Assembly (NCBI GenBank): GCA_963845565.1
Contig: CAWJSJ010000002.1
Span: 256,001-320,000, forward strand
Reading direction: 5' to 3'
From: an uncultured Methylomirabilota bacterium
GTDB taxonomy: Bacteria; Methylomirabilota; Methylomirabilia; Methylomirabilales; 2-02-FULL-66-22
DNA: 64,000 nucleotides
Shown: positions 42,088-47,600 of the stretch, one piece after another
How positions within the stretch are numbered: position 1 is the first letter of the stretch
Layout of the letters: every line of letters starts with the position of its first letter
Notes under the pieces: generated by a model
The model's database searches: none
Seen by the model: the letters and a program-made list of their open reading frames with translations, nothing else
Told to the model about the DNA's origin: nothing
Made by a program: the position numbers and the translations under genes

Positions 42088-42900
42088 TCAAACGGGGCCG
42101 CCGATTCCCTTCAGGAGCGCCCCCACGGCGTAGGCCACGCCGGCGGCGAGGCCGCCGACCAGCAGCATCTCCAGGCCGCTTCGCAGGGCGCTCATCTGGG
42201 TCACCAGGACCTTGGTGGCCCCCAAGCCGAAGAGAGCCAATGCCGACAGGAAGAAGGAGGCGGGGAAGAGGACCGAGGCAGGGATGGCCACCGCCATGGC
42301 CAGGAGGTAGACCAGGAGGGGCACGCTCCCGGCGACGACGAAGGCGACGACGGTGGCCAGGCCGCTCAGCAGCGGGTTCTTTTCCTCCTTCAGCATCCCC
42401 AGCTCCTCCAACATCATGCTGTCGACCCAGCGCTCCCGGTCGTGCGTCTTGATGGCGACCAGTTGACGGGCCTCCTCCTCCGAGTAGCCCTGCCTCCGGT
42501 ACAGGTCGAACAGTTCGGCCCGCTCCCCCTCGGGAAAACGGTCCACCTCCCACGCCTCCCGCGCCCGCTCCCGCTCGTAGTATTCCCGCTCGCTCTTGGC
42601 CGACAAGTACGCCCCGATGCCCATGGAGAAGCCGTCGGCCAGGAGGTTCGCCAGGCCCAGGATCAGGATCACGTTGATGCCGAGCTGGGCCCCCGCCACG
42701 CCACTCACCACGGCGAAGGTGGTGATGATGCCGTCGAGGCCGCCGTATACCATTTCGCCGAGGTACTGGCTTCCGGCCCCGCCGTGCTCCTCCCGGCTGG
42801 CATGGGCAATCCGGCCGGGATCGTGGGCCCTGGCGGACGCCGATGCGTCGCCGCGGGAAAAGGCCTGGCGTGCCTCCTCGAGTCGGCGTGAAAGACCCAT
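42088..42900 (-). CDS. VIT1/CCC1 family iron/manganese transporter
   Basis: VYGGLDGIITTFAVV and ADGFSMG motifs; Glu-rich cytoplasmic domain. Confidence 0.93.
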   Translation of the reverse strand: MGLSRRLEEARQAFSRGDASASARAHDPGRIAHASREEHGGAGSQYLGEMVYGGLDGIITTFAVVSGVAGAQLGINVILILGLANLLADGFSMGIGAYLSAKSEREYYERERAREAWEVDRFPEGERAELFDLYRRQGYSEEEARQLVAIKTHDRERWVDSMMLEELGMLKEEKNPLLSGLATVVAFVVAGSVPLLVYLLAMAVAIPASVLFPASFFLSALALFGLGATKVLVTQMSALRSGLEMLLVGGLAAGVAYAVGALLKGIGGPV

Positions 42901-43148
42901 GGCGCTCCTCTTCTCTCGCTCGGGGGTTGCCAGGCAGGCTTCGCTCTCCCTGGTCGAAGGCGGCCAGGGCGGCCGGCTGCCGGAAGCTCAGCGTGTTGAG
43001 CCGGTTCAGATGCAGCGCCCGCCTCTCGGTGGAGTAGATGGCCTTGGTCTTGGCCAGATCGGGCTGCGTATCCTGGTTTGGCGTCTTCGCGATGGGTGAT
43101 GGTGATAGTTATTTGCTATTGGGTCCGGCGCGAGGATCCTGGCGACGG

Positions 43149-43410
43149 GGTTCCCCCGAGGCCACCGGGGCCATCGCTCCGCGCCTCGCGGGAGGTGGCC
43201 AGCCGCTGGGCGGGAGTATCGAGCGCCCGGGACAGGGGTGTCAAGGGCAAACGCGACTCACCCGGGCGCCAGGGAGGGGACACGCCAGGCCGAGGACGGT
43301 GCCGACCGAGTACCCCGGCAGAACGACCTCAGTACGCGGCGCGCGCGACCCGTTGCAGGGAATACGGCAACGGGTACCCCGCCGGTGGCCTATGCGCCGG
43401 GGCGGGCAAC
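43149..43410 (-). promoter_or_regulatory. Repeated promoter plus hairpin leader element, copy 2
   Basis: TTGACA-N18-GATACT with the same stem as copy 1 and a different loop. Confidence 0.6.
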
Positions 43411-43556
43411 GGGACCAGGTGGCGGAGCGCCTTTTCGATCACAGTGCGCTGTTGAATGAACTGCCTCGAGGCAAGTCGTGAGGCGGTTGATTGCGGCAGA
43501 GCCACGTTCTCGTTTTGTGCAGCTCGCGTTCGCGCGCGGAACCTCCGCAATTTGTC

Positions 43557-43584
43557 TTGACTCTGTAAATCCGTACGCTAGATT
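43557..43584 (+). promoter_or_regulatory. Putative sigma70 promoter of the radical SAM cassette
   Basis: TTGACT-N16-TAGATT. Confidence 0.5.
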
Positions 43585-44061
43585 GTGCCTGCGAGGAAGG
43601 CCAACGCGCAGCGCCGCGAGGTCGCGCTCGCTGTCGGTAACACGGGCGCATTGGATGCGGTCCCGGCCCCTGGGGAACCAGGGTGCGTTGAAACCGGGCC
43701 TACAAAGACAGGTGTAACGCTCTCTTTCACCTCGGTCCACCTCGAGCCCCTAACGTGCTCACACCCCACCTAATGGTCGTGCCTTCCCGGGCTGCCCGCA
43801 ACGCCAATTCACCTCTCGAGGACACGCCCGAACACCAGGCGCGCCGGAGGTGACCGCTCCGTCCCCGGCGACGAAAACAGTCCGTGATGATGCCACACAC
43901 CCTCGACCCCTCGGCGGCACGCCGGACCGTCCAAAACACTCCGGGGGCGCGCCTTTCCATCGCGGCCCGCTGGGTTTGCGCTCACATGGCGGAAGACCGG
44001 CACCCTGTACACCTGGCGGCGGGAGACGGGACAGCATCCAAGCTGCACATCCGGAGGGCGC

Positions 44062-45930
44062 ATGGCGCGACATGTAGATCTGATTCTCCCCCTGGGTGAA
44101 GAGCATGGCCAGGCGTTGATCGCCGGGCAGCAGCCACGCCACACCCAAGACGGCATTGCCGCCGATGCGCTGGCGACGCGATCCGATCTCTACGCATGGT
44201 TGATGCAGCGCCAGATCGGCCGCATCTTACGCCTCGTGACCTTGGAAGCCTCCGGTGAGCCGGTGCAGGCCGACGCGTTCGATGTGGGAGGCCGCCCATT
44301 GTCGCGAACGCGTGGGGTCCGCGTTTCCTATGAAACGCTGGCAAGCTACACGAGGCATGACCCCGTTGTTGGTTATATAGCGGACCGCTTGAAGCGGGCC
44401 CTGCGCACCGGGCGTTTCTCGCGACGAGGCGCGCCCATTGTTGTTGACGGCTTTCGGCTACGCGACCTGGCGCAGTGGTCCACGTATCCCACCGAGTCCC
44501 TCAGCGACAACATCGGCTCAATCTCGAGCTACTGCAACTGCGATTGCGAGTTCTGCTTCGAGAAGAACACGGCGAGTACTGAACTGTCATTGGGCCGGGC
44601 GCAGTTGAGCCGCCTTGAGGTGGAAACCCGCATACGCCATTACCATCCGACGCGCCGTACTGGACTGATTCCTTCGGCACGCTTTTCGCTCGAGCCATTC
44701 GCAAATCCGCACTGCCTGGCGATCCTCGAGCGCGTTCATGCGGTCGCTCCGAACGAGGTCATCTGTTTCACGACCAATGGCTCGTTCCTCACCGAGGACG
44801 TCGTCGTTCGGCTGGCGCGCCTCCAGCCCCTACTTGTCGTGGTCTCCTTGAATTCGGGAACGGTGGAGACGCGGCGGCGCACGATGCGCGACCACCATCT
44901 CGGTGGCGACGAAACCGCCTTCGCCGCCCTGCGCTTGCTCAAATGCCACGAGATTCCATACCTCGTGAGCTACGTCCCGTGGCCGTCGCGCCCGTTGTCT
45001 GACATGGAGGAGATGGTTCGCCTGGTCGATGAGAACGACGGGCTCTTCGCGCGCATTTGTCTACCTTCGTGGACGCGCGCCTCGGCGGCCGCTCCACCGT
45101 TCGATACGGAAACGTATTGGGCAGAGATCCGACAGGTGGTGGACGAGCTCCGCGGCCAAGTCAGCCTCCCCATCCACGTCATGCCAGCCATGTACGAATT
45201 GCCGACGATGCGCCCCGTTATCCACGGCGCCATCAAGAACTCCCCGGCAGCGCGGGCCGGTCTCCAGTACGGTGACCTGATCCTGGGGGTTGACGGAAGC
45301 CCGGTCCACACTCGTGCGGAGCTGAGCGGCCTGCTGGGGATGCGTTACGATGATTTGGAGATTATATCCACCCGCTTCACCGTGCAGCGCGCCGATCGCG
45401 TGATGGAGGTCGAGGTCCCGATGGTGCGGGATCGATCACAGCTCGCGTATCCCTACCGCGCGGTCGTCCACGCCACGGCGAAGCGCTGGGGCAGCAGTCT
45501 CGGCATCCACATGGGCGACGGGATTCCGCTGCGGAGCTTTGTTGACCTCAGAAGCATCGCGGACGAGTACACCGGCAAGACCGTGCTGTTCTACATCTCG
45601 CCGCTCGCGGGCACCAGCTTCTCGGAAGGAATCACCATGCTCGGCGCCGAGGCCGGGTTCCTGGGGCGCAAAGGATTTCACGTGGAGACCCTGGCGCCTC
45701 GGTACTGGGGTGGCAATGTGGTCGTCGGCGACCTGTGGACCTTTCACGATCTGGTCGAGCAGACGCGCCGTTGGATTGCGCATCATGGCATACGGCCCGA
45801 CGTAGTGGTTGCGCCGGGGACGTTTATGGGAACCGGCGGCCGCGATCTCATGGGCACCTGCTACCTGGACTTCGAGCGCGCGCTGGGTATTGAATTCCGC
45901 GCGCTCTCCTGCCCGCGCATCGGGATCTGA
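44062..45930 (+). CDS. Radical SAM protein with PDZ and DUF512-like C-terminal domain
   Basis: CNCDCEFC (CxxxCxxC) and TTNG; PDZ-like NSPAARAGLQYGDLILGVDG; C-terminal YWGGNVVVGDL..D and VVVAPGTF...GRDLMG; GGAGG RBS. Confidence 0.85.
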   Translation: MARHVDLILPLGEEHGQALIAGQQPRHTQDGIAADALATRSDLYAWLMQRQIGRILRLVTLEASGEPVQADAFDVGGRPLSRTRGVRVSYETLASYTRHDPVVGYIADRLKRALRTGRFSRRGAPIVVDGFRLRDLAQWSTYPTESLSDNIGSISSYCNCDCEFCFEKNTASTELSLGRAQLSRLEVETRIRHYHPTRRTGLIPSARFSLEPFANPHCLAILERVHAVAPNEVICFTTNGSFLTEDVVVRLARLQPLLVVVSLNSGTVETRRRTMRDHHLGGDETAFAALRLLKCHEIPYLVSYVPWPSRPLSDMEEMVRLVDENDGLFARICLPSWTRASAAAPPFDTETYWAEIRQVVDELRGQVSLPIHVMPAMYELPTMRPVIHGAIKNSPAARAGLQYGDLILGVDGSPVHTRAELSGLLGMRYDDLEIISTRFTVQRADRVMEVEVPMVRDRSQLAYPYRAVVHATAKRWGSSLGIHMGDGIPLRSFVDLRSIADEYTGKTVLFYISPLAGTSFSEGITMLGAEAGFLGRKGFHVETLAPRYWGGNVVVGDLWTFHDLVEQTRRWIAHHGIRPDVVVAPGTFMGTGGRDLMGTCYLDFERALGIEFRALSCPRIGI

Positions 45931-45953
45931 GCGCGGTCAAGGGGAAGGAGGTG

Positions 45954-46007
45954 ATGGCCTCCGTTTTCTGCCATTGGAGTTGCACGTCGAGTCACGACAA
46001 CCCGTAA
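45954..46007 (+). CDS. Candidate 17-aa peptide MASVFCHWSCTSSHDNP
   Basis: Purine-rich SD-like run AAGGGGAAGGAGG before GTG-ATG; the TAA abuts the next gene's RBS. Confidence 0.3.
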   Translation: MASVFCHWSCTSSHDNP

Positions 46008-46019
46008 AGGAGGAAAGGC

Positions 46020-46346
46020 ATGGAAGAGAAGGTGTCTGCCCCAGAGACGAAGATGGACGAGACCCCCGAGACCGAGGACTCCCGGCGCGAGGTGATCGGA
46101 AAGGTGTTTGCCGCGCTCGGTGCGGCGACTGTTGGAAGTTTGATCGCGTCCGTGGGCGAGGCCGCACAGCAGATGCCTCCCCAGGCGATGCCCGCCCCCG
46201 CGGGAGTTGCCCTGCGTTCGGGGAAGCTGCAGAGCGGCGGCTTCGCGCTCTCGCTGGGAGGAAAGGACATCGCGACGGCACTCGCTCGCGAAGGCCTGAA
46301 CTCGAAGCTGGGCGAGAGAAGCTCGGTCACGCTGACTTGGGAATAG
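46020..46346 (+). CDS. Small protein with twin-arginine (Tat-like) signal
   Basis: AAGGAGG RBS; SRREVIGK, hydrophobic h-region, GEA cleavage-like site. Confidence 0.75.
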   Translation: MEEKVSAPETKMDETPETEDSRREVIGKVFAALGAATVGSLIASVGEAAQQMPPQAMPAPAGVALRSGKLQSGGFALSLGGKDIATALAREGLNSKLGERSSVTLTWE

Positions 46347-46365
46347 AACGCCTGTCCTGAACCTG

Positions 46366-46398
46366 CTCACCGTCCCGTCGTACCGGCGGGACGGTGAG
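46366..46398 (+). terminator. Strong stem-loop after the Tat-signal gene (terminator or stabiliser)
   Basis: ctcaccgtcccgtcg-tac-cggcgggacggtgag; only a short U tail. Confidence 0.6.
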
Positions 46399-46421
46399 TT
46401 CAACATCCGTAGGAGGGCAGC

Positions 46422-46703
46422 ATGCCCGACGATGAGCGCCTCCCGTTCGAGGCGCCGGCGGTAGAGATCGAGCCCGCAGGAGAGAACGAGTTCGTCTTCC
46501 GTTTTCACCTGGACCCTGATATGCAGGATCCTGACGCCCACCCGGACCCCCTCGTCGAATTGGTACGCGGCCAGTTGGCCGATCTCCTCCGCTGCGCCGT
46601 TCTGACCTGCGGCGGGCGGCGCGTGCGTGCAGATGGCTTTCGGCTGCTGCGCGACCCAGATACCCAGTACGCCATCTTCCCCTCGGGCGGAACCGGATCT
46701 TAA
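46422..46703 (+). CDS. Small protein similar to the N-terminal repeats of the radical SAM enzyme
   Basis: AGGAGG RBS; DPLVELVRGQLADLLR...RADGFRLLRD versus the rSAM segment DPVVGYIADRLKRALR...VVDGFRLRD. Confidence 0.7.
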   Translation: MPDDERLPFEAPAVEIEPAGENEFVFRFHLDPDMQDPDAHPDPLVELVRGQLADLLRCAVLTCGGRRVRADGFRLLRDPDTQYAIFPSGGTGS

Positions 46704-46714
46704 GATGAGAAGGC

Positions 46715-46915
46715 TGGAAGCGGCCAACCGCTGGACGGGGGACTTCGGGTCCACAGGACGAGGATGTCAAGAGCAAACAGGGGTCGCCTGGGTACCGGGG
46801 ACACACGTCCTCGCCGAGCGCGGCGCCGACTGAGTGCGCCGACGCGGAAGGACAATCCTCAATTCGTGACGAGCGAGGCGACGGCCGGGCTATGCGCCGG
46901 GGCAGGCCGCTTCCG
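46715..46915 (-). repeat. Degenerate copy 3 of the promoter/leader repeat
   Basis: ccaaccgctgg..gatgtcaagagcaaac..gccgactgagt..ctatgcgccggggc aligns with 43190-43410. Confidence 0.6.
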
Positions 46916-46942
46916 GACGGTTCGGATCGCCCGCGTCCAGCA

Positions 46943-47046
46943 AGCCGTTGTCAAAGAATCAGTTGAGCGGAGACATTCCGAAACGGCATAAGGAGCCGTA
47001 ACGAAATAGAAAGAGATGTATAGGTTATTTCGTAACGGCTCCTAAG
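46943..47046. mobile_element. MITE family 2, long copy
   Basis: agccgttgtcaaagaat...ggagccgtaacgaaatag...ttatttcgtaacggctcctaag. Confidence 0.75.
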
Positions 47047-47600
47047 AGCGTCGCCAGGCCCCGGCTCACCGACCGGATCGCCCGGCGAACTGCGGGCGAG
47101 ATGCCGGCGCCGAGCGACGTGTCCTGGACCTGGATGCCGATCAAGGCCACCTCGCAGGAGAGCTCGCCGACGAGGTACCGCGCCACCATGGAGGCCGGGA
47201 GGGAATGCGTGGAGGTGTTGAGGCCGGCGGCCTCGCGCCAGTCGAGCCAGCGGACCGTGCCGGGCGGGTCGCCCATCTCGGCCGCATCCACCAGGATGAC
47301 GAGGTCCGGGGCGAATCGGCGGATCGCGCCCGTGCAGTTCTCCGGCGCGTGTGCGGCCTCGACCACCAGGAGGGAAAATGGAAGCGGGCCGGGGAGCGTC
47401 GCTCGACCCGGCCCGCTGTCTGTTTCACGAGCGCCTGCGCGACCATCACGCCGGCGGCGTCGTCGCCGTTGAGTCTCCTGGCCCACGCCCACCACGGCCA
47501 CGCGCAGCGGCCGGGACGTCAGGCCGTCCGCCTCACTCCGGGGCGCTGGTTGCAGCCGGCTCAGCGCTTGGCTTGCCGTACGTCGCCACGATGTGCGCAA
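47025..47600 (-). CDS. Hydrogenase maturation endopeptidase (HycI-like) with compensating frameshifts
   Basis: VAVVGVG, APEN, VDAA and STH motifs; the LNGDDAAG motif lies in a shifted frame. Confidence 0.8.
   Translation of the reverse strand: MRTSWRRTASQALSRLQPAPRSEADGLTSRPLRVAVVGVGQETQRRRRRRRDGRAGARETDSGPGRATLPGPLPFSLLVVEAAHAPENCTGAIRRFAPDLVILVDAAEMGDPPGTVRWLDWREAAGLNTSTHSLPASMVARYLVGELSCEVALIGIQVQDTSLGAGISPAVRRAIRSVSRGLATLLGAVTK

Follow-up and report, generated by a model that had tools for sequence, protein, structure and literature searches.

We analysed a 64,000-nucleotide stretch of DNA (hereafter the window) from an uncultured Methylomirabilota bacterium (assembly GCA_963845565.1, contig CAWJSJ010000002.1, positions 256,001 to 320,000). 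In the open reading frame (ORF) listing, three plus-strand ORFs lie between long minus-strand ORFs on both sides. They encode a 622-residue radical S-adenosylmethionine (SAM) enzyme, a 108-residue mini-protein with a putative twin-arginine translocation (Tat) signal and a 93-residue accessory protein, here called X. This layout confirmed an earlier note, made from the letters of the window, which had described co-oriented plus-strand genes inside minus-strand surroundings. The three genes and the structured spacer between the second and third are given below with the evidence used for each.

44062..45930, plus strand: enzyme gene, 622 aa (Pfam; AF2 model; fold searches; profile alignment; conservation)
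46020..46346, plus strand: mini-protein gene, 108 aa, Tat signal (39-row alignment; TIGR01409; motif counts; RNA-run contigs)
46363..46401, plus strand: GC-rich long stem-loop without a U-tract in the mini-protein/X spacer, arms 46366-46380 and 46384-46398 (folding z-score)
46422..46703, plus strand: accessory protein X gene, 93 aa (hhalign; fusion in distant loci; profile search)

Domain architecture and predicted fold of the enzyme

A search of 8000 scored candidates yielded 66 homologous proteins, most with 82-100% of the query covered, and 60 of them were aligned. The CxxxCxxC motif lies at residues 158-165, and its three Cys residues (C158, C162 and C165) are invariant in 60 out of 60 homologues. 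Radical_SAM (PF04055, residues 154-322, 38.6 bits against a cut-off of 29.5) and PDZ (residues 389-452) both scored above the Pfam cut-offs, in agreement with the CxxxCxxC enzyme carrying a PDZ-like segment that the earlier note had described. The two C-terminal motifs that it had singled out were also located, GG-x-V-x-VGDL..D at 550-563 and PGTF..GRDL at 585-596. The domain order is an N-terminal region of two helix-hairpin repeats (about 30-145), the radical SAM domain, an internal PDZ (about 381-487) and a predicted DUF512/Mmp10-like cobalamin-binding fold (about 488-618).

The AlphaFold 2 (AF2) model of the enzyme was of high quality (pLDDT 88.6, pTM 0.86). Foldseek with this model placed 9CG2 and then 9CG1, the DUF512 proteins of Pyrococcus furiosus and Clostridium sporogenes, at the top. 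A fold search of 48,161 chains ranked 9CG2 first (Z 20.5, rmsd 3.4, 314 residues aligned), Mmp10 (7QBS) second (Z 16.1, rmsd 3.5, 319 residues) and 9CG1 third (Z 15.3, rmsd 3.8, 323 residues), followed by SkfB (Z 14.7) over 207 residues only. The matches to 9CG2, 7QBS and 9CG1 span residues 140-622 of the predicted model. Single-sequence and whole-profile PDB searches were dominated by PDZ matches; a profile of 41 C-terminal domains returned 8 matches, led by 9CG1 (E 4.7e-4) and 9CG2 (E 0.036). The Pfam DUF512 family (PF04459) was matched by 27 out of 41 homologous C-terminal domains at E<=0.1 (best 9.1e-10) and weakly by 38 out of 60 aligned homologues at E<=1; one distant relative scored 25.1 bits, against a gathering cut-off of 25 bits. 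The C-terminal domain of the window enzyme gave no PF04459 match at E<=0.1. Taken together, the model and the C-terminal profile bore out the DUF512/Mmp10-like cobalamin fold that had been suggested from the letters. The protein is most likely a divergent class 2 (Mmp10/DUF512-type, C-terminal cobalamin domain) radical SAM enzyme and is predicted to bind cobalamin. The same genome carries a separate canonical DUF512 gene (G000:C1:520731-521345, 209 bits).

The alignments also revealed conserved residues at the predicted cofactor site. In the profile alignment to 9CG1/9CG2, L558 aligns with the lower-axial Leu366 and Leu286 of the solved proteins (the 9CG2 chain bears one extra N-terminal residue in its numbering), and this position is Leu in 56 out of 60 homologues. 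Residue 166, directly after the cluster motif, is Phe or Tyr in 59 out of 60, with counterparts F95, Y47 and Y23. An axial Leu and a cluster-side aromatic residue are linked to radical methylation in the accessible text of PMC11659888 and PMC12931638, the former of which reports cobalamin binding by four DUF512 proteins with unknown substrates. S513, Ser or Thr in all 60 homologues, is a candidate for the Thr/Ser that bonds the dimethylbenzimidazole tail in this class, although the HMMER alignment to 9CG1 begins three residues past Thr323. G481, likewise invariant (60/60), sits in a Leu-Gly-Ile loop of the PDZ that, from the sequence, may be equivalent to the carboxylate-binding loop of 9CG1. 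Two further Cys residues are conserved: C160 (44539-44541), an extra Cys within the cluster motif present in 56 out of 60 homologues, and the near-invariant C617 (45910-45912) close to the C-terminus.

A Tat-signal mini-protein is conserved beside the enzyme

We fetched 97 loci, comprising 58 close (at least 38% identity) and 31 distant loci; the other eight, L018-L025, were left out before counting (radical SAM domain match only, 25-30%). A homologue of the Tat gene followed the enzyme in 39 out of 42 close loci with at least 500 nt downstream, and X was present in 25 out of 29 with at least 1000 nt downstream, these loci being related and some near-duplicates (L055 matches the window at 99-100% identity), so that the counts are not of independent events. 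The Tat protein and small protein whose conservation beside the homologues the earlier note proposed to survey were thus found, and of its refuting conditions, neither the lack of a DUF512/cobalamin-type fold nor the lack of these neighbouring genes was borne out. The Tat gene was missing in L045, L049 and L061, where the flank of L061 was another enzyme copy, and four loci carried the partner gene in two tandem copies. No further neighbour occurred in more than 5 out of 22 close loci (shadow ORFs of the cassette set aside), and neither a protease nor an exporter was conserved among these 22. A profile search for the mini-protein family found only 22 proteins, making the family as rare as the enzyme.

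The mini-protein begins with a signal in which RR at residues 22-23 precedes a hydrophobic stretch and a putative cleavage site near 47-49. After a variable linker comes a conserved C-terminal domain of about 45 residues, which in a 39-row alignment contains an invariant Glu (E91) and, at its terminus, an alternating-hydrophobic segment with Trp at its end. For motif counts, we kept 49 sequences from 60 at 90% identity. RR was present in 47 out of 49 partners, RRxF in 40, an AxA-type site in 46 (signal mean hydropathy, 1.7) and E91 in all 49. Cys was absent from 47 partners, and 41 had an aromatic residue among the last four positions. TIGR01409 was matched by 35 out of 39 partners at E<=1, and it is because of such homologues that we assign the window mini-protein to Tat. 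The genome encodes TatC (E 1.4e-68) and 13 B12-binding domains above cut-off. We found no match to a nitrile-hydratase-like or Nif11 leader on the mini-protein; Atlas structure searches of its domain and of X gave no usable match, which does not imply a new fold.

X is related to the N-terminal module of the enzyme

By profile comparison, X is a stand-alone version of the N-terminal module of the enzyme, a relationship that the earlier note had overlooked. The hhalign comparison of X with this module gave a probability of 90.8 (E 1.2e-6), with X aligning to enzyme residues 100-144 and more weakly to 42-73. Of the 31 distant loci, 17 had X as a separate gene and 13 had it fused to the enzyme N-terminus; in one it was not seen. 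Because X is fused to the enzyme in distant loci and homologous to its N-terminus, X is probably a small subunit of the enzyme. Its profile drew in 377 clusters at 50% identity; of 15 longer matches scanned, six carried Radical_SAM (five of these with PDZ as well) and nine no relevant family.

NCBIfam held no family for X, and an RRE/PqqD-like family was not among the Pfam/NCBIfam matches of the enzyme or X. A fold search with the X model (pTM 0.52) returned seven chains with Z>=2, the best at 2.5, a result that says nothing of a new fold. Modelled as a complex, residues 30-622 of the enzyme, 18-90 of X and 18-108 of the mini-protein scored 0.14 against a mark of 0.32, with the controls not folded and no verdict given, and we used this result neither way.

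Partners of the enzyme in distant loci

In a quick tree of 59 enzymes, used for grouping only, the window enzyme fell within a branch of 28 (support 100), 25 of which had a Tat partner. A second, separate Tat group held four enzymes (one labelled by eye), and enzymes fused to X formed a clade of 12 rows (support 100). Other branches showed a pair of enzymes in tandem beside a short SWG-ending peptide, a doubled-motif partner without a signal, or a fused X; most distant loci lacked a Tat gene.

The signal-less partners are 104-109 residues long and bear the conserved motif twice, each followed by a hydrophobic Pro-rich segment (L077:1498-1827, L084:6613-6927, L095:7641-7955 and L078). When we ran the mature-domain profile against 5064 segments, signal-less distant partners made up 6 out of 8 matches, about three distinct sequences, at weak scores (best E 0.022). 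L075:4394-10919 contains two tandem enzymes, X, an HxsC-like radical SAM gene and a peptide that ends in H[VL]S[FI]SWG (68-86 aa across such clusters), together with a subtilisin-like protease gene (best match, below cut-off). Clusters similar to it, resembling those for peptides made by the ribosome and then modified post-translationally (RiPPs), lie at L089:4291-11071 and in L088, L093 and L085; the HxsC-like labels near distant enzymes are likewise best matches below cut-off. In L071:5174-8951, as in L072, L096 and L098, the order is enzyme, X, Tat-signal protein and a gene of about 350-400 aa, whose best NCBIfam match in L071 is the YydG epimerase, below cut-off. The signal-less partners and the HxsC-like, YydG-like and subtilisin-like neighbours support peptide or protein maturation as the main role of the family; the mutase-linked loci with a fused X, described below, count against it.

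Proposed mechanism and alternatives

We propose, with confidence about evenly balanced, that the mini-protein is C-methylated by the enzyme while still in the cytoplasm and is exported by Tat afterwards. In the cytoplasm, the 622-residue enzyme would team with X as its small subunit and would bind the 108-residue protein by way of that protein's conserved C-terminal domain, with the PDZ possibly capturing the terminal strand of the mini-protein. One SAM would methylate cobalamin and a second would yield the 5'-deoxyadenosyl radical, so that one or more methyl groups could be put on unactivated carbons, with the terminal strand or the R90-E91-G92 motif as first candidates. Export of the folded product would fall to the Tat system of the host, and signal peptidase would trim this product to about 60 residues. 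The unit would rely on host Tat, no other neighbour being conserved; TatC is present in the genome.

Several observations weigh against this proposal, the first of them in the enzyme itself. The full-length window enzyme had no Pfam DUF512 match at E<=1. The axial Leu is preceded by Gly in both solved DUF512 proteins but here by an invariant Asp (D557, 60 out of 60 homologues), and the cobalamin site therefore differs from theirs. D557, like C160, would fit the same enzyme-substrate pair with a non-methyl chemistry, in which cobalamin has a different role and the enzyme cleaves or epimerises the mini-protein or forms a C-C crosslink or ring in it, one example of a site for such a bond being the C-terminal Trp. 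The aromatic residue near the end of 41 out of 49 partners points the same way, and cobalamin radical SAM enzymes that do not methylate exist, such as OxsB in the accessible text of PMC11659888. On the other side, both the hydrophobic residue at the axial position and the aromatic one beside the cluster are retained, and the window enzyme had no SPASM/twitch match in Pfam. The earlier note had allowed for crosslinking, of which a thioether form is improbable given the scarcity of Cys in the partners. Overall, we regard a non-methyl chemistry as unlikely.

The mini-protein itself furnishes further points against C-methylation before Tat export. The 49 partners have 11 different last residues and are therefore a poor fit to a canonical PDZ ligand. 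Two close relatives, L045 and L049, have no Tat gene downstream, and the relatedness of the counted loci also tells here. The window signal reads RREVI, without the consensus Phe, and matched no Tat model alone; its closest relatives read RREMI. The twin-arginine signal claimed in the earlier note is upheld at the level of the family. With such motifs, and with distant homologous partners that lack a signal (one such locus having the subtilisin-like gene), the twin-arginine segment could instead be a RiPP-type leader or a membrane anchor, the product staying inside or at the membrane or being cut to a short C-terminal peptide. We consider this very unlikely in view of the full tripartite signal with its AxA-type site in 46 out of 49 partners and the TatC of the genome; as close loci show no conserved protease or transporter, host Tat and signal peptidase would be the simplest route.

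Adjacency of a small Tat protein to a cofactor-loaded enzyme without a signal would also suit a carrier that takes the enzyme out piggyback, as MelC1 does for tyrosinase via Tat. This idea is weakened by the cytoplasmic location of the SAM and low-potential electrons on which radical SAM turnover depends, and by the lack of a Tat gene in most distant loci. We therefore hold piggyback export to be extremely unlikely here; Tat export of heterodimers as such is noted in the accessible text of PMC10924467.

The remaining points against the proposal come from loci with a fused X. Of the 13 such loci among the 31 distant ones, the 12 with listed ORFs showed no small partner, and 8 out of these 12 adjoin a gene for what we take, from its motif, to be an acyl-CoA-mutase-type B12 subunit (L080, L082, L083, L087, L091, L094, L099 and L102). 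A co-encoded small protein is therefore not the target in every member of the family. On a reading that we judge somewhat unlikely, the mini-protein is not the substrate at all: enzyme and X would act on a host protein, a cofactor or a small molecule, as may also be true of the mutase-linked relatives, and the exported protein would be a co-regulated sensor, carrier or immunity factor. In keeping with this, the partner resembles a small folded domain with one invariant residue only after the signal. Against it stand the near-constant adjacency in the close clade, where no other gene is conserved, and the related small ORFs without a Tat signal that adjoin distant enzymes, which fit a cytoplasmic interaction with the domain.

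Spacers and transcripts

The earlier note had offered a nearby 17-mer as an alternative substrate and fourth gene. This 17-codon ORF exists (45954-46007), but its ribosome site is poorly spaced, as GGAGG lies only 2 nt from the ATG, and the ORF is not conserved: among 29 spacers inspected, the other 28 showed none like it. A substrate role for the 17-mer is thus not supported.

The strong hairpin reported after the mini-protein gene was upheld by folding (-42 kcal/mol; z -4.56; matched by none of 200 shuffles). It lacks a T-run and was not among the terminator-like sites. A hairpin with z<-2 followed the partner gene in 19 out of 29 loci, compared with 2 out of 28 upstream spacers, and is likely to act as a transcript stabiliser or attenuator. 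In 4 out of 4 RNA runs (from four studies, chosen from 15), contigs 99-100% identical covered the mini-protein gene and ended at 46354-46360, just 5' of the hairpin, whereas the DNA contig L055 continues into X. This weakly hints at a stable transcript ending before the hairpin, since the contigs carry neither strand nor level and the hairpin may block library synthesis. No contig in the four runs lay over the enzyme gene body or the X gene; contigs cannot rank genes.

Flanks and likely acquisition of the cassette

Three further features lie outside the genes.

43387..43407, plus strand: 21-nt direct repeat, left copy (repeat search; genome matches)
43557..43584, plus strand: possible sigma-70-like promoter, weak (9/12 consensus match)
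46887..46907, plus strand: 21-nt direct repeat, right copy (repeat search; genome matches)

An own promoter, as the earlier note had it, is favoured by gene orientation and not by the consensus match, which is weak (2 sites found in the promoter scan compared with 0.7 +/- 0.7 expected). Pfam assigned the upstream neighbour to the VIT1 family and the downstream one to hydrogenase maturation proteases. The roughly 1.1 kb from the VIT1-family gene to the enzyme (43038-44061) contained no assignable ORF and no Rfam match, and Rfam gave no match at E<=1 over 42800-47200. A PADLOC match to viperin was rejected as a generic radical SAM match only.

We did not find X in 100 relatives, a set that included 20 members of the same genus, and the C-terminal profile matched 1 out of 250 other genomes of the phylum, weakly. 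The close loci with a named source belong to genomes of Armatimonadota, Planctomycetota, Deltaproteobacteria and Ca. Hebobacteria. GC content is 63-65% at the cassette compared with about 68% around it, and the cassette was likely acquired horizontally. The two copies of the 21-nt repeat, 90% alike, lie on either side of the lower-GC cassette and account for two of the three genome matches at one mismatch or fewer; they may be an insertion scar. In eight loci of genomes from the same genus, the match to the window starts only at 46944, and the empty insertion site could not be defined. At 46942-47046 lies a 105-nt element with a terminal inverted repeat and 206 blastn matches in the genome, many full-length at 95-100%. 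It also occurs in RNA-run contigs with varied flanks and had no Rfam match; it is a dispersed repeat resembling a repetitive extragenic palindromic (REP) element or a miniature inverted-repeat transposable element (MITE).

Comparison with known systems

The earlier note had not recognised the gene set as a described pathway, and we found no description in the literature searched, most subscription papers lying outside it. The solved DUF512 proteins share with the window enzyme a radical SAM domain and, C-terminal to it, a cobalamin-type fold (accessible text of PMC11659888), and both 9CG1 and the window enzyme have a PDZ with a hydrophobic-Gly-hydrophobic loop. In 9CG1 (csDUF512) the PDZ is N-terminal and the cluster loop bears a DDD motif, whereas here the PDZ lies between the radical SAM and cobalamin domains. 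The window enzyme adds the N-terminal repeat module, lacks a DDD motif after the cluster, is 9-13% identical to 9CG1/9CG2 and has a candidate substrate and small subunit encoded beside it, whereas the solved DUF512 proteins have no known substrate. Mmp10, the arginine C5-methyltransferase of methyl-coenzyme M reductase, shares the class 2 architecture and acts on a protein, but it has an iron loop, no PDZ and a large cytoplasmic enzyme as its target, and is 11-14% identical.

Among proteusin maturases, PoyC is a B12 methyltransferase with an N-terminal cobalamin domain and PoyD an epimerase. The likeness would lie in cobalamin radical C-methylation of a ribosomal precursor, and L071 pairs the enzyme with its YydG-like gene. 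Unlike that of PoyC, the cobalamin domain here is predicted to be C-terminal, and export would be by Tat. The nearest organisational precedent is the HXS anti-phage system, HxsABCD, which in the accessible text of PMC13128918 has one or more cytoplasmic radical SAM maturases, a small accessory protein and a signal-bearing target modified before export. The window differs in having one cobalamin-type enzyme and a target without HxS repeats or a peptidoglycan-binding domain. HxsB, HxsC and HxsD found no match in the window's three proteins or the X family, and by these profiles HXS would be a non-homologous analogue.

By analogy with HXS for the effector role, it is conceivable, if doubtful, that the cassette represents a new class of modified exported mini-proteins. 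Here, a two-subunit class 2 cobalamin radical SAM enzyme, with an uncatalogued accessory module and an inserted PDZ gripping the substrate end, would C-methylate a folded domain of about 60 residues, which Tat would export as a periplasmic or secreted effector in defence or competition, and the scaffold would have been re-aimed at several kinds of partner. Results for this enzyme need not transfer to canonical DUF512 proteins. For an enzyme class in which few reactions are known, the rare but conserved three-gene unit supplies a candidate target that can be put to the test, combining a new domain order with a small, expressible candidate substrate and subunit encoded alongside. If the proposal holds, Mmp10-type chemistry would be extended from one methanogen enzyme to exported bacterial proteins.

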